Source of the DNA: Candidatus Iainarchaeum sp.
GTDB lineage: Archaea > Iainarchaeota > Iainarchaeia > Iainarchaeales > JAZDEL01
Length of the DNA: 55,949 bases
Reading direction: 5' to 3'
Assembly (NCBI GenBank): GCA_043820655.1
Contig: JBDRDO010000059.1
Span: forward strand, 1 to 55,949
The notes below the pieces were generated by a model. That model was not told the origin of the DNA. It saw only the letters and a program-made list of their open reading frames with translations, and ran no database searches. The translations under genes were made by a program, and so were the position numbers. Shown piece by piece: positions 4,489-41,048 of this stretch (position 1 is the stretch's first letter; each line of letters starts with the position of its first letter).

Positions 4489-5559
4489 TCATCTCCCTGT
4501 GTACTCCAAATGATAGTGGACCTCATATCCATAAAAGTAGACCTCATGCGCGTCAAGGTCTGAAATTGTGATTGTGATCATGAAAAGATGCGGCTTGTTG
4601 TTCATTTTATAGGGCAGGCCGGTTGTGTTTGAGGAGTTCATTTCAAATTCGGTACCGCTTGTCTGGTTTGTTGTGTAATTCGCCTCAACAGTTACCGCCT
4701 GCGTGTTCGGGTCAACGCTGACTATATTTGCATCATCAACATAGAATGTTGCGCCGACATTGTAATCGTAAACAGTTATGCGGTCTATTACAGGCGTTGC
4801 GCCGAACTCAACAACATGCATCGGCAGCCCAACCTGGAGTATTCCTCCCGCTGTTCTGGAAACCCCGAACTGGTAAACATTGTCCCCGCGGTAAGTGGTG
4901 AATTCCGTTACGTTGGAGGCTGCATCGACAAAAAGGCTGAATGCGCCCTGCGTGCCCGGGTCGGGCATTACAATTTCCGTTCCGCTCTGCAGGATGAGGT
5001 TTCCTGAAAGATTAATGTCGCCTGCCGTTGGAGTTGAGGCATTGCCAGTTACTATTGTGTTTGAGACGTTCATGTCGTTGAAGTTTGCCCCTCCCAAAAG
5101 CACGACTTGTTTATCTGTTGAGATTGTAAGGTCATTGTCGGCATCGCTGTCGGAGATGCACGAGGTGCAGTTAACATCTTCCGCGGTTTTTGAGGTGTAA
5201 CAGCCGGGCAATGGGGTTAACCTGCTGCGCGGAGCCATCTCCCCGTCGTTTTCTATGTTCACGCCGAGCCAGTACTGGTCAAGGAAGTTGAAGTCTGTTA
5301 GTGCTGTGATTTCACCGAGGGTTGTGCTGAAGTAGCCGTTTGAAACGCCGACTTCATTCGCGCCCTGGTGGATTTCATTCCAGATTGCCGTGCCTCCCGT
5401 GGAAACGTTGTAAAGCGCAAAGTGCATGTTGTAATCTCCGTCGGAGTATGTGCCGGATGAGGAAAGCCTGCCCTGCACATTCATCTGGTTTACGTATGCT
5501 GTTATGGGGAGGGCCAGAAGAACAACTGCGAAAAGCGCCAGTGCAAGTTTCAGTTTCAT
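4489..5559 (-). CDS. secreted paralog 3 of a triplicated ~360-aa family
   Basis: Signal peptide MKLKLALALFAVVLLALPITAYV. Shares with its two neighbours the VQG..L....Y.M.F.IY....G...Y.E.H.GAN...V.NG.F...LG.I(T)AL...F...YW.G(I/V)......EM.PR N-domain, a DVNC[ST]xC hinge, a GD(I/V/M)N(L/V/I)SG motif and a C-terminal (R/E)(L/V).Y(H/Y) ending. Confidence 0.85.
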   Translation of the reverse strand: MKLKLALALFAVVLLALPITAYVNQMNVQGRLSSSGTYSDGDYNMHFALYNVSTGGTAIWNEIHQGANEVGVSNGYFSTTLGEITALTDFNFLDQYWLGVNIENDGEMAPRSRLTPLPGCYTSKTAEDVNCTSCISDSDADNDLTISTDKQVVLLGGANFNDMNVSNTIVTGNASTPTAGDINLSGNLILQSGTEIVMPDPGTQGAFSLFVDAASNVTEFTTYRGDNVYQFGVSRTAGGILQVGLPMHVVEFGATPVIDRITVYDYNVGATFYVDDANIVSVDPNTQAVTVEANYTTNQTSGTEFEMNSSNTTGLPYKMNNKPHLFMITITISDLDAHEVYFYGYEVHYHLEYTGR

Positions 5560-32655: not shown

Positions 32656-33018
32656 ATGGTTATGAGGCTCCCTTGTGAACTGGTGGGGTGGTATTTGCTT
32701 CCCGCAATAAGAATGGAGCTTGTGAAGGAAATGGTCAAGGGCGGAATGCCGCGCAAGGATGTCGCAAAACAGTTGGGCCTTACCGAGGCGGCGGTATGCA
32801 ATTATATTAAGGGAAAACGGGGCGCGAACATTGCGCTTGACGGCAAAGCAAAGGCGAAGATAAGGGCTATTGCCAAGAAGATTGCGGATAAGGAAAAGGG
32901 CGGCAAGGAAACGTTCATAGGGGAGACGTGCGCGCTGTGCATATCACTCCGCAAGGCAGGGGCGCTTTGCAAGATGCACAAGGAGCAGGGAGCGCCAAAG
33001 GACTGCAACGCATGTTAG
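32656..33018 (+). CDS. HTH transcriptional regulator with a C-terminal Cys cluster
   Basis: HTH (RKDVAKQLGLTEAAVCNYIKGKRG) followed by CALCISLRKAGALCKMH...DCNAC. Directly upstream of nifS-iscU. Confidence 0.6.
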   Translation: MVMRLPCELVGWYLLPAIRMELVKEMVKGGMPRKDVAKQLGLTEAAVCNYIKGKRGANIALDGKAKAKIRAIAKKIADKEKGGKETFIGETCALCISLRKAGALCKMHKEQGAPKDCNAC

Positions 33019-33026
33019 GGGCTGAA

Positions 33027-34202
33027 ATGGCGATGAAAAACGGAAAAATCTATATGGACAATGCCGCAACCACGCGCGTTGATGAACGCGTGATTGGGGC
33101 AATGGCGCCTTATTTCTCGGAAAGGTTCGGGAATGCCTCATCACTGCACGAATATGGCAGGGGCGCATCAGTGGCTGTTGAAGTGGCGAGGGAAAAGGTT
33201 GCGAAACTGCTTGGCGCAAAGGCGGAGGAAATTTACTTCACTTCGGGCGGGACCGAGGCTGACAATCTTGCATTAAAAGGCGCGGCATTTGCCGCACGCG
33301 GGAGGGGAAAGGGGAACCATATAATAACAAGCGCAATAGAGCATCCCGCGGTTCTGCAGGCATGTGAATTTTTGGGAAAGGATGGATTTGAGGTTACTTA
33401 CGTGCCCGTGGACAGGGAAGGGGCGGTTAAGGCTGATGCAATTGGGGATGCAATAACAAAAAACACATCACTGGTTTCAGTTATGCACGCAAATAATGAG
33501 ATAGGCACAATACAGCCTGTTTCGGAAATAGGAAAAATCTGCGGGGAAAGGGGCGTGCTGTTCCACAGTGATGCGGTGCAGACATTCGGGAAGATTGAAA
33601 CAGATGTGAAAAAAATGAATGCGGATTTGGTTTCTTTAAGTGCGCATAAGATTTACGGGCCGAAGGGTGTTGGGGCGCTGTATGTTAGGGATGGTGTTGA
33701 GTTAAGCACGCTTATGCACGGCGGGGGGCATGAAAGGGGGCTGCGTGCAGGCACTGAAAACGTGCCCGGTATTGCGGGATTTGGAAAGGCGGCAGAGATT
33801 TGCGGAAAGGGAATGGTAAAGGAGGCAAAGCGTGTTTCGGGAATGAGGGATGCGCTTATTGATGGTGTGCTCTCGGAAATTAAGGATGTTGCGCTTAACG
33901 GCCACAGGAAACAGCGGCTGCCAGGGAATGCAAATTTTTCATTTTCACATATAGAGGGCGAGGCGCTTATTATGATGCTTGACGATAAGGGGGTTGCGGC
34001 TTCAACAGGGTCGGCATGCTCGTCAAAATCATTGAAGGCAAGCCATGTTTTGCTTGCGCTGGGAATGCGGGAGGTGCAGGCGCACGGCTCTTTGCGGCTT
34101 ACTTTGGGGAGATTCAATACAAGGCAGGATGTTGATTATGTGCTTGGGGTTTTGCCCGGCGTTGTTAAGGGCCTGAGGAAAATAAGCCCGCTTGGGAAGT
34201 GA
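33027..34202 (+). CDS. nifS: cysteine desulfurase (NifS/IscS class)
   Basis: IYMDNAATT, SLSAHKIYGPKG (PLP lysine), SSGSACSS (catalytic Cys loop). Confidence 0.9.
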   Translation: MAMKNGKIYMDNAATTRVDERVIGAMAPYFSERFGNASSLHEYGRGASVAVEVAREKVAKLLGAKAEEIYFTSGGTEADNLALKGAAFAARGRGKGNHIITSAIEHPAVLQACEFLGKDGFEVTYVPVDREGAVKADAIGDAITKNTSLVSVMHANNEIGTIQPVSEIGKICGERGVLFHSDAVQTFGKIETDVKKMNADLVSLSAHKIYGPKGVGALYVRDGVELSTLMHGGGHERGLRAGTENVPGIAGFGKAAEICGKGMVKEAKRVSGMRDALIDGVLSEIKDVALNGHRKQRLPGNANFSFSHIEGEALIMMLDDKGVAASTGSACSSKSLKASHVLLALGMREVQAHGSLRLTLGRFNTRQDVDYVLGVLPGVVKGLRKISPLGK

Positions 34203-34238
34203 ATGATTAGAGGTAACACGGAATACGGGAGTGATTGC

Positions 34239-34634
34239 ATGTACGGCGAGAAGGTGATGAAGGAATTCAGGAACCCGAAAAATATGGGCGCAATTAAGGA
34301 TGCTGACGGCATTGGCACAGTAGGAAATCCATCCTGCGGGGATTTGATGAAGGTTTACATAAAGGTCAAGGCAGGGAAGATTGCGGATATTAAGGTTGAG
34401 ACTTACGGATGCGTGGCGGCAATTGCAACTTCCTCAGTTACAACGGAATTTGTAAAGGGCAAAACAATCGAGGAAGCGGAGAGGCTGACAAAGGATGCTG
34501 TTGCAAAGGAACTGGGGGGGCTTCCGCCCATAAAAATGCACTGTTCCGTGCTTGCGGTTGACGGACTTAAGGCAGCAATCGCGGATTACAGGAAGAGGCA
34601 GAACGAAAATAAGGCGCGAAAAGTAAAATCCTAA
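34239..34634 (+). CDS. iscU: Fe-S cluster scaffold IscU/NifU N-terminal type
   Basis: NPSCGD, GCVAAIA, HCS motifs (three Cys ligands). Confidence 0.85.
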   Translation: MYGEKVMKEFRNPKNMGAIKDADGIGTVGNPSCGDLMKVYIKVKAGKIADIKVETYGCVAAIATSSVTTEFVKGKTIEEAERLTKDAVAKELGGLPPIKMHCSVLAVDGLKAAIADYRKRQNENKARKVKS

Positions 34635-34760
34635 GTGCATCCTATTCGCTTTGAAAAAAAGCGAACTGCGGGGCAATTAGCCCGCCAAGATAATAAGGAA
34701 ACCTAATAAAAGGGCGCGGCTTTCTTTGGTTTCTATGGCGCGGCGCATTGCGGCAAATCC

Positions 34761-34791
34761 TTATAAACTCAGGAAACACAATTGTTGTTCC
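34761..34791 (+). promoter_or_regulatory. TATA-like box followed by an imperfect 20-bp palindrome upstream of nrdD
   Basis: ttataaa (34761-34767), then ggaaacacaa/ttgttgttcc (34772-34791; the half-sites match 8/10 as an inverted repeat). 39 nt before the nrdD ATG. Confidence 0.4.
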
Positions 34792-34829
34792 AATAGGTTT
34801 GATAAGAAGATAATAGAAGGGGGGATTAT

Positions 34830-37800
34830 ATGGAAAGCAAAAAAAATGAAATTGCATCTATACGCAAAAGGGACGGCAGAATCGTGCCTTTTGACGGGGA
34901 AAAGATAGCCCATGCTATTTTCAAGTCCGCGCAGGCAGTGGGGGGAAGCGATAAGGCAACTGCGGAGGCGCTTGCGGGAAAGGTTTTTGAGGCACTTGGA
35001 AAGAGGTTCAAGGCGGATGAAATACCGAGTGTTGAGCAGATACAGGACCTTGTTGAAAAGGTGCTTATTGAGGAGGGGCATGCAAAAACAGCGAAGGCCT
35101 ACATCATCTACAGGCAGCAGCACAAGAAAATCAGGGAAATAGAGAGCACGCTTATAGATGTTCAGAAAACAATTGATGAGTATCTGCAGCAGAGCGACTG
35201 GAGGGTTAATGAAAACAGCAATGAGGCGTATTCATTCAGCGGCCTGCTTCTGCACACCGCGGGAAAGGTCATTGCAAATTACGCGCTGACTGAAATTTAT
35301 CCCCCCGATATTGCGGATGCGCACAAGAAGGGGTATATGCATGTGCATGACCTGAGCCACGGGTTTATCGGCTACTGCGCGGGCTGGAGTTTGGAAACAC
35401 TGCTTGAGCGCGGGTTTGGGGGGGTCGCAAATAAGGTGGATGCAAAGCCGGCAAAGCACATGGATGTTGTTGTGCACCAGATGGTGAATTATATCGGGTG
35501 TTTGCAGATGGAGTTTGCTGGTGCGCAGGCGTTCAGCAGCGTGGACACTTTGCTTGCGCCGTTTGTAAAGGCTGACAATCTTAGCTATAAGCAGGTTAAG
35601 CAGGATATGCAGAAACTTATATTCTCATTGAATATACCCTCAAGGTGGGGCTGCCTCAGCGAGGACACAGAAATACTGGCTGAGGGAGGCTGGAGGAAGG
35701 GCACGGAACTTGAGCGCGGAGATGTAATTGCCACGTTCAACACAAAAACAGAGGAGATAGAATATCTGCCCGTTATAAAGATGACAAAGGACCATTACAA
35801 GGGCAGGATGAAAAGGCTGCGCAACAGGATTACCGACCAGCTTGTGACTCCGAATCATCGCATTCTCAGGAGAATACACAATTACAAAGAAGGCGTTTCA
35901 AAATCAAAATATGTATTTGAGGAGGCAGCGGAACTGAAAACAGGCATCCCGCTGATACCGCTTGGCGGTTTTTTTCGGGGCACTGAAAACGGCGCTGTTC
36001 TTAACCACGACACTGTGAATCTGCTTTCATGGATTGTTTCTGAGGGCACGCTGTGCGAGGGTGAAAGAATAGGCATACATCAATCCGCGGAAATGAATCC
36101 GCAGAACTGTGAAGATATACGGGGCACACTTACAAGGCTTGAAATCCCGTTTGACGAGGCGATGAAGGTTTCCGGTTACACAGGAAAAAGGAACTGTTTA
36201 AGGTTCAGAATTAACCGGCCTGAATCAAGGAACATCTGCACTGAGTTCTTTCCGAGATATGAGAAAAAAATTCCTGAGCAAATGAGAGATGCCCCTGCAG
36301 AAAGTATAAGGCTTTTCTTGGAAACGTATATGAAAGCAGATGGCTGGGCGCCTGAAAACAAAATTTACACAAAGAAAGGGGATGATGCGGATGTTTTTCA
36401 GGAACTGGCGGTAAAGGCGGGCTGGGGCAGCACCTGCTACAAAAACAGGAACGGTATTTTTGTTGTTAGGGTAATAAAGCACGATTATACACAAATAACA
36501 GCAATAGAGGATGTTGAGTATGACGGACTGGTTTGGTGCCCTACAACGGAAAACGGCACGGTTATAGCCAGGAGAAAGGGAAAGGTTTTCATAAGCGGGA
36601 ACTCACAGTATCCTTTTTCGAATCTAACTTTCGACTGGGTTGTGCCTGATGACATGAAAGATAAGAAGGCGCTTGTTGGCGGGGTTAAGCAGGAATTCAC
36701 TTACGGGGATTGCCAGAAGGAAATGGACACGGTAAACAAGGCGTTCCTTGAGATAATGAATGGGGGAGATGCGAACGGCAGGGTTTTCACATTCCCGATC
36801 CCGACATATAATATCACAAAGGACTTTGACTGGGACAGCGAGAATGCTGATTTGCTTTTCGAGGTTACGGCAAAATATGGATTGCCCTACTTCCAGAATT
36901 ATGTCGGAAGTAATTTAGATCCGGGAAGCATACGGGCAATGTGCTGCAGGCTGAACATGGACACAAGCCAGCTTATGAACAGGCCGGGAAGCATGTGGGG
37001 GCCGGGCGACAGCACGGGAAGTATTGGTGTTGTCACAATAAACCTGAACAGGCTTGCATATGAGGCAAAGACAAAGGACGAGTTCATGGACAAGGTTGCG
37101 CACTACATGAACCTTGCACACCAGTCGCTTGAGATAAAGCGCGTAATAATAAACAAGAATTTGAAGAACGGGCTTATGCCCTACACAAAGGCATATCTCG
37201 GAACGTTCAGGAACCACTTTTCAACAATAGGGCTTGTCGGAATGAACGAGGCGTGCAAGAACATGCTTGGGGAGAGCATCAAAAGTGAGGCAGGGAAGCA
37301 GTTTGCAATAGAGACACTGCAGTTCATGCGTGAAAGGTGCCTGCAGTTCCAAAAGAACAGCGGAAACCTATATAATCTTGAGGCAACGCCAGCGGAATCC
37401 GCATCATTCAGGCTTGCGAAGCTTGACAAGGAGATGTACCCGGATATAATAACTGCAGGGACCGATGTGCCGTACCTCACAAACTCAACGCACTTGGGGG
37501 TTGGGGAGACGGATGATGCTGTTGAGGCAATAGAGCACCAGAACGACATTCAGCCGCTTTACACAGGGGGAACAATGTTCCACACATTTTTAGGGGAGAA
37601 TGTTTCAAGCGGCGCTGCGTGTAAAAAACTTGTGCGAAGGATTGCGGAAAACACAAGGCTGCCATACTACAGCATAACCCCTACATTCAGTGTCTGTCCC
37701 GATCACGGGTATATTGCGGGGAAGCATTTTACCTGCCCCGCATGCAGTGACAACGCGGAAGGGGTGAAGGAAAATAATGCAGGCAGTGTGGAAACTGCGG

Positions 37801-37901
37801 AAATTGGCGGGCGGGCGGAGGAAGGCACGGCAGATGCCGCGGAAACCGGAGCCCCTGCAAACGGAGATGGCAATTTAGCCGAAGCAACTGAAACGAGGTG
37901 A
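34830..37901 (+). CDS. nrdD: anaerobic (class III) ribonucleoside-triphosphate reductase large chain, intein-containing, lacking the glycyl-radical tail
   Basis: ATP-cone N-terminus (IRKRDGRIVPFDGEKIAHAI), NrdD core, and a C-terminal ITPTFSVCPDHGY..FTCPAC. Ends in a 50-aa acidic low-complexity tail and a double stop (TGA TAA). Confidence 0.9.
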   Translation: MESKKNEIASIRKRDGRIVPFDGEKIAHAIFKSAQAVGGSDKATAEALAGKVFEALGKRFKADEIPSVEQIQDLVEKVLIEEGHAKTAKAYIIYRQQHKKIREIESTLIDVQKTIDEYLQQSDWRVNENSNEAYSFSGLLLHTAGKVIANYALTEIYPPDIADAHKKGYMHVHDLSHGFIGYCAGWSLETLLERGFGGVANKVDAKPAKHMDVVVHQMVNYIGCLQMEFAGAQAFSSVDTLLAPFVKADNLSYKQVKQDMQKLIFSLNIPSRWGCLSEDTEILAEGGWRKGTELERGDVIATFNTKTEEIEYLPVIKMTKDHYKGRMKRLRNRITDQLVTPNHRILRRIHNYKEGVSKSKYVFEEAAELKTGIPLIPLGGFFRGTENGAVLNHDTVNLLSWIVSEGTLCEGERIGIHQSAEMNPQNCEDIRGTLTRLEIPFDEAMKVSGYTGKRNCLRFRINRPESRNICTEFFPRYEKKIPEQMRDAPAESIRLFLETYMKADGWAPENKIYTKKGDDADVFQELAVKAGWGSTCYKNRNGIFVVRVIKHDYTQITAIEDVEYDGLVWCPTTENGTVIARRKGKVFISGNSQYPFSNLTFDWVVPDDMKDKKALVGGVKQEFTYGDCQKEMDTVNKAFLEIMNGGDANGRVFTFPIPTYNITKDFDWDSENADLLFEVTAKYGLPYFQNYVGSNLDPGSIRAMCCRLNMDTSQLMNRPGSMWGPGDSTGSIGVVTINLNRLAYEAKTKDEFMDKVAHYMNLAHQSLEIKRVIINKNLKNGLMPYTKAYLGTFRNHFSTIGLVGMNEACKNMLGESIKSEAGKQFAIETLQFMRERCLQFQKNSGNLYNLEATPAESASFRLAKLDKEMYPDIITAGTDVPYLTNSTHLGVGETDDAVEAIEHQNDIQPLYTGGTMFHTFLGENVSSGAACKKLVRRIAENTRLPYYSITPTFSVCPDHGYIAGKHFTCPACSDNAEGVKENNAGSVETAEIGGRAEEGTADAAETGAPANGDGNLAEATETR
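35652..36602 (+). mobile_element. intein (317 aa) with a LAGLIDADG homing-endonuclease domain inside nrdD
   Basis: Block A CLSEDTEIL, block B VTPNHRIL, LAGLIDADG-like LLSWIVSEGTL and FLETYMKADGW, block F/G VWCPTTENGTVIA...VFISGN followed by Ser +1. Removing it leaves a 706-aa NrdD. Confidence 0.8.
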
Positions 37902-37906
37902 TAAAG

Positions 37907-38071
37907 ATGACGGAATGCGGAAAGGAATGTGAAGTATACAGCAGGATTGTGGGCTATTTCAGGCCTGTGCAGAACTGGAACATAGGGAAGAAGGAGGAGT
38001 TCAGTGAGAGGTCTGAATATGTCGAGGAGAAATCCATGGCAAGCCGGTTCAGTAAAGAGAAGGGATGTTAG
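37907..38071 (+). CDS. stand-alone glycyl-radical / zinc-ribbon C-terminal module of NrdD (54 aa), absent from the ORF track
   Basis: MTECGKECEVYSRIVGYFRPVQNWNIGKKEEFSERSEY contains the RIVGY glycyl-radical motif. GAGGTGA SD at 37894-37900. Frame +2 relative to nrdD. Confidence 0.7.
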   Translation: MTECGKECEVYSRIVGYFRPVQNWNIGKKEEFSERSEYVEEKSMASRFSKEKGC

Positions 38072-38307
38072 TGGTTAATACATATAAGTTCTTCACAATC
38101 ACGACATGCACAAAGTGCCCTGAGATAAGGGAGTTCCTTAAGGGCGCGAACCTCAAGGGAGAGGAAATAAACGCAACTTCTGAGGAGGGGTTTGAGGAAT
38201 CAAAGAAGCATAATGTTCTGGCCGCGCCCACGGTTATTTTCTTTGATGAGAATGGCGATGAAGTCGGGCGTGCCGGCACTATTGAGGAGATAAAAAAATG
38301 GATATAG
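38065..38307 (+). CDS. thioredoxin/glutaredoxin-like small redox protein (NrdH-like position)
   Basis: 80 aa. CTKC active site in a Trx-fold context (KFFTITTCTKCPE ... APTVIFFD). Lies between the nrdD tail ORF and nrdG. Confidence 0.7.
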   Translation: MLVVNTYKFFTITTCTKCPEIREFLKGANLKGEEINATSEEGFEESKKHNVLAAPTVIFFDENGDEVGRAGTIEEIKKWI

Positions 38308-38999
38308 CCGGGCTGCAGAAAACCACGCTTATTGATTATCCCGGCAAGGTTGCATGCACTGTTTTTGTTGCGGGCTGTAATTTCAGGTGCCCCTACTGCC
38401 ATAATCCGGATCTGGTGCAGGCAGGCAGGGAAATCCCAAAGATGCCCCGGCAGGGGGAGTTCTTCAAATTCCTTGCGAAAAGGAAGAAGTGGCTTGACGG
38501 GGTTTGCATAACAGGCGGGGAGCCGACACTTAACGCGGAACTGCCTGAATTCATCGGGAAGATAAAGGCAGAGGGGTTTCTGGTTAAGCTGGATACAAAC
38601 GGCACAAACCCAAAACTGTTGGGGGAACTTATTAAGGGCGGGCTTGTTGATTACGTTGCAATGGACATAAAGGCGCCGCTTGAGGGATATGACAAAGTTG
38701 TGGGGGTTAAGGTTGATACTGCCGCGATTAAGGAAAGCGCGGCAATGCTTATGCAAGGGGGCGTGGATTACGAATTCAGGACAACTGTTGTGCCGGAACT
38801 ATTCGGGGAGAAAGAGGCGCGGGAGATTGCAAAGTGGCTTAAGGGGGCAAAGAAGTATTACCTGCAGACATTTAACCCGCAGGTTCCTCTGCTTGACAGG
38901 GAATTCATGAAAAAGAAGCCATACGAACAGGGAGGAATGGGGAAATTAAGGGAAATTATGGCGCCTGCCTTCGGAATTTGCGGGGTGCGGGAAGGTTAA
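38298..38999 (+). CDS. nrdG: anaerobic ribonucleotide reductase activating protein (radical SAM)
   Basis: CNFRCPYCHN radical-SAM cluster motif, GVCITGGEP. Confidence 0.9.
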   Translation: MDIAGLQKTTLIDYPGKVACTVFVAGCNFRCPYCHNPDLVQAGREIPKMPRQGEFFKFLAKRKKWLDGVCITGGEPTLNAELPEFIGKIKAEGFLVKLDTNGTNPKLLGELIKGGLVDYVAMDIKAPLEGYDKVVGVKVDTAAIKESAAMLMQGGVDYEFRTTVVPELFGEKEAREIAKWLKGAKKYYLQTFNPQVPLLDREFMKKKPYEQGGMGKLREIMAPAFGICGVREG

Positions 39000-39053
39000 G
39001 CCTGCGGGATACATATAAAAAAACATGCCAGTTTTTTTTAATGGGGTGAGCAT

Positions 39054-39233
39054 ATGGAAAAACCTAATATTGACTATGGGAAATGCAAGAATGACGGGAC
39101 ATGCATAAGGGTCTGCCCTATGGAGGTTTTCGCTAAGGAGGGCAAGAAGACCGTTGTTAAGCATCCCGAGAAGTGCATCCAGTGCAGGGCATGTGAAGTC
39201 AGCTGCCCGAATTCCGCGATTGAAGTTAAGTGA
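39054..39233 (+). CDS. small 2x[4Fe-4S]-type ferredoxin (59 aa), absent from the ORF track
   Basis: MEKPNIDYGKCKNDGTCIRVCP...KCIQCRACEVSCP. Confidence 0.7.
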   Translation: MEKPNIDYGKCKNDGTCIRVCPMEVFAKEGKKTVVKHPEKCIQCRACEVSCPNSAIEVK

Positions 39234-39294
39234 TTTGCCGCAGGTGCAAACCGCACATAAGAACAGAAAAGCAAAACAAACAAGAGGTGTGACA

Positions 39295-40401
39295 ATGGTT
39301 AAATTTGATGAGTTCGGGCCGGAGAAGATATTGGAGGTGCACGACCATAAATCGGGAATGCACGGGTTTGTTGTGATTGACAACACAGCACTTGGACCGG
39401 GAAAGGGCGGCATCAGGATGATGCCCAATGTTACTGTTGATGAGGTGTATAAGCTTGCGCGCACAATGACATGGAAATGTGCGATGGCGGAACTCCCTTT
39501 CGGCGGGGCGAAGTCGGGAATAATTGCGGATGCTAAAAAGCTGAGCGCGGAGCAGAAGGAGAGGATTGTTGCGAAGTTTGCCGAGGGGCTTAAACCTGTC
39601 TGCCCCGAACTTTATGTTTCAGCGCCCGATATGAACATAGCTGAGCATGAGATGGAAATATTTGCGAATGCCAACGGGGATAACAAGGCGTGCACAGGCA
39701 AGCCCGCGGCAATGGGAGGCCTGCCGCATGAATTGGGAAGCACGGGTTACGGCACATACCTTGCGGCAAAGGCAGGGGCGGAACATCTTGGGATGGATTT
39801 AAAGGGAGCAAAGGTTTCAATAGAGGGTTTCGGAAATGTCGGAACATTTGCAATGAAGTTCCTTGCGGAGGAGCAGGCGAACATAGTCGCTGTTTCTGAT
39901 TCAAAGGGGCTTATCTATGACGAAAACGGATTTGATTATGAGAAGATGATGAAGGTTAAAGGGGAGACAGGGAGCGTGACAAATTACGGCACTGGAAAGG
40001 TTCTTGCGGGGAAGGATATTGTCGGGCTTGATGTGGATATCCTTATAACCGCGGCAATACCCGACCTAATTACAAGGGAGAATGTCGGGCAGGTCAAGGC
40101 AAGGCTTCTTTCCGAGGGGTCGAACATACCTATGGAGCTTGGGCTTGAGGAGGAACTGCACAAAAAGGGCGTGCTTATTATGCCTGATTTCATCGCGAAT
40201 GCGGGCGGCGTAATTTCAAGCTATGTTGAATACATAGGCGGCACGGAACAGGAAATGTTCAGGATGGTCGAAGATAAGATAATAAAAAACAGCAAGGAGA
40301 TGCTTGAACATTCAAAGGAAAGCGGAAAAAGTCCAAGAGAGAGCGCGATGGAGATTGCGCTTAAAAGAGTAAGGGAAGCAATGGAAAAGAGAGGGCAATG
40401 A
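39295..40401 (+). CDS. Glu/Leu/Phe/Val-family amino-acid dehydrogenase
   Basis: GPGKGGIRM, FGGAKSG, GFGNVG Rossmann motif. Start chosen at MVKFDEF (39295), since the track start at 39154 overlaps the ferredoxin ORF. Confidence 0.85.
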   Translation: MVKFDEFGPEKILEVHDHKSGMHGFVVIDNTALGPGKGGIRMMPNVTVDEVYKLARTMTWKCAMAELPFGGAKSGIIADAKKLSAEQKERIVAKFAEGLKPVCPELYVSAPDMNIAEHEMEIFANANGDNKACTGKPAAMGGLPHELGSTGYGTYLAAKAGAEHLGMDLKGAKVSIEGFGNVGTFAMKFLAEEQANIVAVSDSKGLIYDENGFDYEKMMKVKGETGSVTNYGTGKVLAGKDIVGLDVDILITAAIPDLITRENVGQVKARLLSEGSNIPMELGLEEELHKKGVLIMPDFIANAGGVISSYVEYIGGTEQEMFRMVEDKIIKNSKEMLEHSKESGKSPRESAMEIALKRVREAMEKRGQ

Positions 40402-41048
40402 GCCGCACAGCGGGCATTGAAAAAATACTGCGCGTAATGCGCGCGGAAGCGGGGAATAGTGCGGCAGTGGTTTCACTGCGCACCCCTTTTCAGGTGCTTG
40501 TCTCAACTGTGCTTAGCGCAAGGACAAGGGATGAAAATACTGCAAGGGCTTCCGCACAATTATTTTCAAAATTTGGCACGCCCTCGGCAATTGCGGGGGC
40601 AAGGCTGAGTGAAATTGGGCGGCTTATAAAGCCAAGCGGATTTTACAAAACAAAGGCGAGGAATATAAAAAAACTCGCACGCGAACTGCTGGAGCGGTTT
40701 GATGGGGAAGTTCCGCAGGGCATTGAGGCCCTCATAACGCTTCCCGGAGTGGGAAGGAAAACCGCAAACTGCGTTTTGGTTTACGCCTTTGGGAAGCCGG
40801 CAATCCCCGTTGATGTGCATGTGCACAGGATTTCAAACAGGCTCGGCCTTGTGGAAACGCGGGCGCCGGAGGAAACCGAGATTGCACTTATGAAAGCCGT
40901 GCCAAAGAGGCACTGGATTGAAATAAATAATCTGATGGTTAAATTCGGGCAGAGGGTTTGCAGGCCTGTTGCGCCCCATTGTGCGCAGTGCGGGTTGATG
41001 AAGGATTGCAACTATGGCAAATTAAATGTGCCTTCAGCCCATGCCTGA
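40398..41048 (+). CDS. nth: endonuclease III (DNA glycosylase/AP lyase)
   Basis: HhH-GPD (LPGVGRKTANCVL, catalytic Lys; VDVHV.R) and the Fe-S loop CRPVAPHCAQCGLMKDC. Confidence 0.9.
   Translation: MSRTAGIEKILRVMRAEAGNSAAVVSLRTPFQVLVSTVLSARTRDENTARASAQLFSKFGTPSAIAGARLSEIGRLIKPSGFYKTKARNIKKLARELLERFDGEVPQGIEALITLPGVGRKTANCVLVYAFGKPAIPVDVHVHRISNRLGLVETRAPEETEIALMKAVPKRHWIEINNLMVKFGQRVCRPVAPHCAQCGLMKDCNYGKLNVPSAHA

Follow-up and report, generated by a model that had tools for sequence, protein, structure and literature searches.

Can the radical glycine of an anaerobic ribonucleotide reductase reside on a protein chain of its own? This question is raised by a locus of Candidatus Iainarchaeum sp., found in contig JBDRDO010000059.1 of assembly GCA_043820655.1. 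The contig has 55,949 nt; we have analysed it as a whole and will call it the window. It contains nrdD, the gene for a class III ribonucleotide reductase (RNR), which ends before the glycine loop (Gly loop) that should carry the radical. The loop is found in a separate open reading frame (ORF) of 54 codons, located immediately downstream. In our opinion the two ORFs code for a naturally split, obligate two-subunit class III (anaerobic) RNR. We give this reading a probability of about 0.85; the individual steps of the mechanism, which we infer, are less certain. The features which define the split are the following:

34830–37901, + strand: nrdD, large (catalytic) subunit, 1023 amino acids (aa) including an intein; it has an ATP-cone, an alpha/beta barrel core and the finger loop ...IRAMCCRL...
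37695–37745, + strand: zinc-ribbon segment C956-P-D-H959 ... C969-P-A-C972, aligned to Thermotoga maritima NrdD (4COI); its columns are invariant in A2, an alignment of 50 sequences
37728–37745, + strand: FTCPAC, where the NrdD homology of the large ORF stops
37746–37898, + strand: acidic low-complexity tail, 51 codons, rich in Glu, Ala and Gly, non-homologous, variable among relatives and predicted to be disordered
37895–37901, + strand: Shine-Dalgarno (SD) sequence GAGGTGA, which overlaps the TGA stop of nrdD and lies 5 nt upstream of the next ATG
37899–37904, + strand: tandem stops, TGA (37899–37901) and TAA (37902–37904), at the end of the large subunit
37907–38071, + strand: putative small glycyl-radical subunit, 54 aa, stop codon at 38069–38071; it matches positions 526–562 of Pfam NRDD with E 3.5e-11

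The locus was first noticed in an inspection of the DNA letters by themselves, which we will call the sequence-only reading. It described correctly the double stop TGA TAA and the ATG at 37907, which opens a 54-codon ORF in a different frame (position mod 3 is 2 for the small ORF and 0 for nrdD). Other details need small corrections. FTCPAC is present, and the interval given for it, 37734–37745, covers only CPAC. The acidic low-complexity tail is also there, with 51 residues instead of 50. Finally, GAGGTGA has the right spacing, and its position was given one base off, as 37894–37900.

The large ORF is identified as a class III NrdD core by every profile. It matches Pfam NRDD with E 9.8e-164 (546 bits) and the ATP-cone with E 1.2e-24; in NCBIfam it reaches 985 bits with NF006126 (cut-off 548) and 462 bits with TIGR02487 (cut-off 326). 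The finger-loop motif ...RAMCCRL... is present: its cysteines C388 and C389 (extein numbering) are invariant in A2, and their thiyl-radical role is assigned by homology. The Pfam NRDD alignment stops at profile position 531 of 562 (residue 976) and the alignment to NF006126 reaches 657 of 684. The motif RxxGY is absent from the large ORF, so that the polypeptide with the barrel has no Gly loop; the motif is found as RIVG16Y in ORF 37907–38071. This small ORF covers the last 37 positions of the NrdD profiles: its match with Pfam NRDD has 42.9 bits (cut-off 26.2) and it is aligned to positions 646–682 of NF006126. Both in Pfam and in NCBIfam the coverage is collinear, first the large ORF and then the small one, which confirms the claim that the nrdD homology ends at FTCPAC and that the small ORF supplies the rest. 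A fused relative (protein P0125), when compared with the window by tblastn, appears as three collinear pieces. The same search detected no second nrdD within the 56-kb window.

The sequence of the small ORF opens with MTECGKECEVYSRIVGYFRPVQNWNIGKKEEFSER... and contains at its N-terminus Cys4, a putative fourth zinc ligand. Then comes the Gly loop EVYSRIVG16YFRPV (the codon of G16 is at 37952–37954), followed by QNWNxGKKEEF and by a variable tail which ends in cysteine. A protein search with the 54-aa ORF gave 227 matches, and the counts of residues and lengths which follow were obtained from the best 120 of them. All 120 are stand-alone proteins, with a length of 36–82 aa. Most of them begin with M-x(1-2)-C-x3-[CT]-E-[VT]-YSRIVGYFRPVQNWN. 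The invariant positions in the peptide alignment are C4, S12, R13, V15, G16, R19, P20, W24 and N25; the first cysteine is near-invariant, since it is kept in 117 of the 120 homologues. A representative library at 50% identity contains 3242 matches with E <= 1e-3, and about 136 of the best 150 have at most 100 aa. In public records such small ORFs are labelled as short 'anaerobic ribonucleoside-triphosphate reductase'.

The end of these mini-proteins is variable. A cysteine is found within the last 8 residues in 44 of the 120, and a cysteine pair in 18; the window protein ends in ...KEKGC (38060–38068). These C-terminal cysteines may form a redox-shuttle tail like those of class I and II RNRs, or they may provide an extra metal ligand. 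Some stand-alone Gly-loop proteins are longer. They have the same M-x-C start and an additional C-terminal domain, which is thioredoxin-like with CxxC in P0268 and P0305 and resembles dCMP deaminase (HAE...PCxxC) in P0355.

In other genomes the same organization is found repeatedly. We will use L numbers for the loci of relatives and P numbers for homologous proteins. After one scan of species-representative genomes and one of JGI metagenomes, the distinct split loci amounted to 35. The source names of the homologues, where given, are Diapherotrites, Micrarchaeota, Bilamarchaeaceae and Nanoarchaeia, and the layout is found in independent assemblies with these labels. In the seven long contigs which we looked up, a truncated nrdD is always followed directly by an ORF of 45–69 aa and then by nrdG, the activase gene, sometimes with one or two small ORFs, such as a redoxin, before nrdG. 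The closest relative is L001, in a metagenome-assembled genome (MAG) of Diapherotrites (GCA_043808785.1). Its gene order is that of the window: IscS, IscU, nrdD with an intein, mini-ORF, redoxin, nrdG, ferredoxin, glutamate dehydrogenase and endonuclease III. The large subunits of L001 and of the window are 84% identical over the aligned part, and the junction differs in two respects: L001 has a gap of 47 nt and a different, shorter tail.

The junction itself is variable. The distance from the stop of the large subunit to the ATG of the mini-ORF, measurable in 29 of the 35 split loci, goes from -26 to +119 nt, and the three frame offsets are found 13, 11 and 5 times. The tail differs in length and sequence in every relative. 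At least 5 nt of GGAGGTGA are located 3–10 nt upstream of the ATG of the mini-ORF in 32 of the 35 loci; as a background, such an SD precedes no more than 6% of all the ATGs present in these loci. Together with the profile matches, this supports the proposal that the Gly loop belongs to a mini-protein which is translated separately, from an SD of its own. The split loci come from unrelated samples and have a GC content of 29–53%. Their core subunits are 70–86% identical across lineages, which indicates that they are under constraint. In the core of the mini-ORF (36 codons) the ratio of non-synonymous to synonymous substitution rates (dN/dS) is 0.14 between the window and L001. Its median is also 0.14 over 144 of the 595 locus pairs, those in which dS is usable and unsaturated; in the remaining pairs synonymous sites are saturated. 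As judged from these values (about 0.14), the mini-ORF is under purifying selection. The split arrangement is recurrent across DPANN-type archaea and is not peculiar to the window genome. The sequence-only reading had suggested a search for the two ORFs in related genomes. They are present in L001 and in dozens of others, which have two ORFs with an SD instead of a continuous nrdD devoid of it.

How did the split state arise? Among the 120 closest homologues of the large subunit (at least 68% identity), 32 stop soon after HFxCP and have unrelated tails; the other 88 are fused. In a neighbour-joining (NJ) tree of 121 core sequences there are several coherent split clades, and split forms are also found beside fused forms which have insertions at the same site. 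A single origin of the split was discarded: on this tree about 13 switches between the split and the fused state are required, although its deep branches are short and unsupported. The split state is patchy, and it probably arose or reverted more than once.

Three other observations were made in these scans. Locus L075 (3501–3647) has the same split (MAKCGEKTEVYSRVCGYFRPV..., with a 49-nt gap) in a MAG labelled Verrucomicrobia; it could be a bacterial occurrence or a binning error. In L006 (2952–5168, 29% GC) nrdD is called as three ORFs with 582, 91 and 55 aa; the extra 21-nt break may be a second fission or a frameshift. Finally, an orphan Gly-loop ORF of 40 aa, P0098, is found in L010 at 5001–5123, in the same contig as L171 (10001–10123), and also in L172 and L173. 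It lies among tiny co-directional ORFs without relatives, with intein-interrupted helicases, a NinG-like gene and a phosphoribosyltransferase nearby. Neither an nrdD core nor nrdG was found within 20 kb of it. A neighbour of 230 aa in L010 was considered as a divergent nrdG and ruled out, as it has no radical-SAM match. Three samples contain this contig, which has the appearance of a virus or a mobile element with the radical peptide alone.

The break has a precise location with respect to the zinc site. The zinc motif of T. maritima NrdD is CxxxHx6CxxC (PMC4493059). When aligned to it, the NrdD family studied here has C-P-x-H ... C-P-x-C, and the zinc ribbon of the window, C956-x2-H959-x9-C969-x2-C972, is a predicted metal site of the same kind. 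We had also considered a four-cysteine site of T4 type, split into 2 + 2. It was dropped, as the alignment favours the T. maritima type C..H..CxxC, broken between ligands 3 and 4. Close relatives with a fused chain have the pattern ...HFxC-P-x-C-x3-[CT]-E-V-YSR..., from which C4 of the peptide appears to be the counterpart of the last cysteine in the second knuckle. The chain is thus interrupted inside this knuckle, between C-P and x-C. The sequence-only reading had assigned the second cysteine pair to the mini-ORF, and this claim does not hold. Only C4 is aligned with the knuckle, in its last position; at the site of the second cysteine of the mini-protein, 87 of the 120 homologues have Cys and 30 have Thr, which speaks against a conserved ligand there. 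The knuckle loop appears to be a permissive site, where fission occurred, because fused relatives may carry insertions exactly there: among the 87 which were scored, 75 have the canonical spacing from C-P to Cys and 12 have 6–17 additional aa. The truncated large chains (32 homologues and the window) behave differently. Five of the 33, including the window, have CPxC and three have CPC, whereas the others have no second cysteine nearby. Since most split large chains lack the last cysteine, while the first cysteine of the peptide is near-invariant, a zinc site common to both chains is likely. Zinc would be bound jointly by three ligands of the core and one of the peptide, which would clamp the N-terminus of the latter.

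A structure prediction gives a similar picture. We used AlphaFold2 (AF2) to model core, tail and peptide as one chain, with an input alignment of fused relatives. The mean predicted local distance difference test (pLDDT) score is 80. The peptide part has 77–86, with a beta-hairpin at the Gly loop, and the tail (model residues 656–707) is below 50, as expected for a predicted disordered region. The model matches with probability 1.00 the class III RNR structures 8P2C, 9D3X, 4COI and 1H7A; these solved structures come from Prevotella copri, Streptococcus thermophilus, T. maritima and T4. According to the model, the peptide could occupy the usual place of the glycyl-radical domain (GRD). In P. 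copri NrdD this domain, which comprises a Zn site, a Gly loop buried in the protein and a tail on the surface, moves as a unit and becomes invisible in the inhibited state (PMC11226230). A detachable GRD is therefore physically plausible.

From these data the following mechanism may be proposed. The peptide would be translated from its own SD site, which overlaps the stop codon of nrdD, and coupled translation would yield it in a near-stoichiometric amount. It would then dock non-covalently on the large subunit, so that its N-terminal cysteine adjoins or completes the zinc site. The Gly loop would enter the barrel and face the Cys loop, which is also its place in single-chain NrdD. NrdG would abstract a hydrogen from the glycine and generate the radical on G16 of the peptide; from this point catalysis would not differ from that of an ordinary NrdD. 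If oxygen cleaves the chain at the glycyl radical, probably only a 6-kDa subunit would be lost, replaceable without remaking the large one. One may go further and imagine the peptide as an exchangeable 'cartridge': NrdG would charge the 6-kDa peptides while they are free of the enzyme, and they would be clipped to the barrel through the shared zinc site and swapped after oxygen damage. Virus-like elements which only have the peptide (L010/L171) would then re-arm or take over the GRD-less reductase of a host. We consider this extension rather doubtful, with the odds clearly on the other side.

Several points weigh against the two-subunit reading or limit it. The NJ tree behind recurrent fission has, as stated, short and unsupported deep branches, and for this reason we limit our claim to a split that is patchy and probably recurrent. 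The AF2 model is a single chain and its input alignment consisted of fused homologues, so that it is no test of docking in trans. The large subunits of the window and of L001 keep all four ligands (CPAC and CPVC, respectively) and the peptide has its cysteine as well, which makes the shared zinc less compelling precisely here. Errors of gene calling or assembly could account for some singleton 'truncated' homologues. Furthermore, we infer the two-chain assembly, the activation of a free peptide by NrdG and the activity of the enzyme.

Other explanations of the locus should be compared with the two-subunit enzyme. The one which survives best, although we find it quite improbable, is that the mini-protein is a spare part: its main task would be to re-arm another, full-length NrdD whose gene lies at a different site of the genome or in a host, with a secondary role for the truncated large ORF. 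Such a role has a precedent in GrcA, with a rescue function for pyruvate formate-lyase (PFL) cited in PMC13450708, and it would suit the orphan copies of the peptide found without a neighbouring nrdD core in the virus-like contig from three samples. On the other hand, in every cellular split locus examined the peptide gene comes directly after a well-conserved GRD-less core and before nrdG. A second nrdD is absent from the 8 relatives inspected, as it is from the 56-kb window (these are loci, not whole genomes). The constraint on the core subunits, 70–86% identical across lineages, does not agree either with a secondary role.

Recoding is a weaker candidate, and very improbable. A programmed -1 frameshift, stop readthrough or ribosomal bypass would produce one fused polypeptide with the tail as a linker. 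In formal terms a passage from frame 0 to frame 2 is a -1 shift, no stop interrupts the 51 codons of the tail, and in L006 the ORFs are in frame with a single TAA between them. However all three frame offsets are found among the relatives, the gaps extend from -26 to +119 nt, and in the window two different stop codons follow one another. A direct reading of the junction reveals no slippery heptamer, and the folding of its RNA is no better than that of shuffled sequences (z = -0.33). Recoding would not need a conserved ATG and SD either. We have rejected it on account of the variable gaps and frames, the tandem stops and the absence of RNA structure at the junction.

A sequencing or assembly indel, or a recent pseudogene, has to be considered because a single inserted nucleotide anywhere in 37886–37898, a stretch with short homopolymers, would fuse the frames into ...ATETR-VIKMTECGK... 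For this reason the comparison with other genomes is the key test. It leaves this explanation with practically no weight: the split is shared by 35 distinct loci whose samples are unrelated and whose gaps, frames, tails and GC content (29–53%) vary, and the ATG, the SD and a dN/dS of about 0.14 are maintained. Even the closest relative, L001, has another gap (47 nt) and another tail. On such comparative data the indel or pseudogene is effectively refuted.

Splicing is equally negligible and was rejected: archaea do splice a few mRNAs, nrdD already hosts one intein, and excision of a 161-nt bulge-helix-bulge intron would restore the frame, but no significant structure is found at the junction (z = -0.33), Pfam detects no intein domain where tail and peptide meet, and a split intein formed by the tail and the N-terminus of the peptide would have no IntN domain, since the tails after C-P(xC) are unrelated, of low complexity and have 5–51 aa (down to 5–12 aa, for example in L150, L114 and L008), and no room for IntC, since the peptide starts 1–3 residues before its conserved cysteine.

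The two-subunit enzyme may now be compared with known systems. Single-chain NrdD enzymes with NrdG (phage T4, T. maritima, P. copri, S. thermophilus) belong to the same core family (NF006126/TIGR02487/PF13597). They share with the window enzyme the ATP-cone, the finger-loop cysteines, the RxxGY loop, an activase of NrdG2 type and, in T. maritima, a zinc ribbon of the type C..H..CxxC. The difference is that here the Gly loop and the C-terminal tail are found in a separate chain of 54 aa, whereas a disordered acidic tail takes the place of the connection.

The sequence-only reading had compared the mini-protein with GrcA (YfiD). As a description of its possible behaviour the comparison is acceptable: GrcA and its T4 homologue are also small stand-alone proteins with a radical-glycine loop, they need a cognate radical-SAM activase, and in both cases oxygen damage would be cheap to repair. 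As an identity it fails. GrcA is found together with a complete PFL, for whose cleaved domain it substitutes, whereas here the large subunit itself has no glycine loop; the mini-protein would thus be an obligate subunit and not a spare of the GrcA type. Furthermore, GrcA is homologous to the PFL C-terminus, while the small ORF only matches NRDD/NrdD models and not Gly_radical PF01228 (Pfam, NCBIfam). Nor is GrcA known to have a zinc-ligand cysteine at its N-terminus.

RNRs encoded in pieces have been described before. In the split class II enzyme NrdJa/NrdJb (bioRxiv 10.1101/2022.04.23.489257), as in the 'genes-in-pieces' NrdA of Aeromonas phage Aeh1 (PMC3653736), the catalytic subunit is encoded by two adjacent ORFs; together they cover the full-length homologue, and their products presumably associate without a covalent link. 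The ORFs studied here are likewise adjacent and collinear, have their own starts and are conserved across lineages (35 loci, 32 of them with an SD). The class of RNR and the break point are different: by every profile the present enzyme is class III and not the B12-dependent class II, and none of the pieces of NrdJa/NrdJb or Aeh1 NrdA is a 6-kDa radical peptide. The split of Aeh1 NrdA was reportedly caused by a homing-endonuclease insertion, whereas no mobile element is seen at the split of the window. Interruption by introns, inteins or endonucleases is found in phage NrdA and NrdD (PMC3653736).

Glycyl-radical enzymes (GREs), as they appear in published reviews, keep the radical glycine on the catalytic chain. 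A 2026 review (PMC13450708) names GrcA as the sole autonomous glycine-loop protein and lists small GRE subunits only for HPAD (gamma), BSS (beta, gamma) and MASS (beta, gamma, delta). Such subunits are also small, rich in cysteine and metal-binding, and they bind the catalytic subunit of the GRE (PMC13450708); they differ in being HiPIP- or rubredoxin-like Fe-S proteins without a radical glycine. A parallel in concept is class I NrdA/NrdB, in which the stable radical is stored in a small subunit of its own, and this subunit docks onto the catalytic one. That subunit is an unrelated ferritin-like metallo-/tyrosyl-radical protein with long-range transfer, whereas here the glycine is predicted to lie directly in the barrel. 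We found no description of a split class III NrdD of this kind in the searchable full-text literature, the coverage of which is incomplete.

Gene fission in DPANN-type archaea is in itself unsurprising; the notable part is a native mini-subunit which would bear the radical. It would mean that the radical domain is able to function as a subunit in its own right. If the peptides are exchangeable as suggested above, this would be the first GRE with its radical cofactor on a dissociable subunit, a class III counterpart of the alpha/beta organization of class I. The peptide also offers a natural, soluble substrate of 54 residues for the study of NrdG recognition and activation, and of the entry of the domain into the barrel. 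The two-piece organization points moreover to an inexpensive way of repair for small-genome archaea exposed to oxygen. There is also a consequence for annotation: such small ORFs are easily missed and a truncated nrdD is easily flagged as a pseudogene, so that DPANN-type genomes wrongly seem to lack a working anaerobic RNR.

The other features of the locus are:

35652–36602, + strand: intein of 317 aa (CLSED...FISGN), inserted between RWG and SQYPF, as found by alignment to the intein-free L004, L007 and L009
38065–38307, + strand: putative thioredoxin/glutaredoxin-like redoxin, 80 aa, with CTKC, from weak profile matches and homology to fused forms
38298–38999, + strand: nrdG activase (radical SAM), TIGR02495 NrdG2 with 216.7 bits (cut-off 131), also Pfam Radical_SAM and Fer4_12
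39054–39233, + strand: ferredoxin with 2x[4Fe-4S], 59 aa, syntenic in L001, a possible electron donor

These genes form a compact operon: the nrdD core, 5 nt, the Gly-loop peptide, -7 nt, the redoxin, -10 nt and nrdG. The sequence-only reading was right in that a thioredoxin-like gene (38065–38307) and nrdG (38298–38999) follow nrdD; the TIGR02495 match of the latter provides the adjacent activase. The locus is flanked by cysteine desulfurase, IscU, glutamate dehydrogenase and endonuclease III (32928–34634 and 39154–41048); their order, shared with L001, puts the window within or close to the lineage of that Diapherotrites MAG. A promoter and terminator scan of 34500–39300 gave counts near the shuffled expectation, with a sigma-70 model that is inapplicable to archaea.

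The redoxin matches Pfam Thioredoxin_3 with E 3.5e-5 and 24.2 bits, just below the cut-off of 24.8, and Glutaredoxin with E 5.6e-4 and 20.5 bits (cut-off 22.9). Since both scores are under the cut-off, its assignment combines a weak profile match with its homology to fused forms. In many Clostridia and some DPANN archaea (L013–L090) a thioredoxin-like module is fused to the C-terminus of NrdD, while in the window it is a separate gene. A three-module protein thus seems to be separated into three genes in the lineage of the window.

The intein of nrdD, also reported in the sequence-only reading, is real: its site is uninterrupted in intein-free homologues. It has no match with E < 0.01 to any intein or homing-endonuclease family of Pfam. 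The same intein is present in the nrdD of L001, and the nrdD of L002 has two inteins with recognisable domains.

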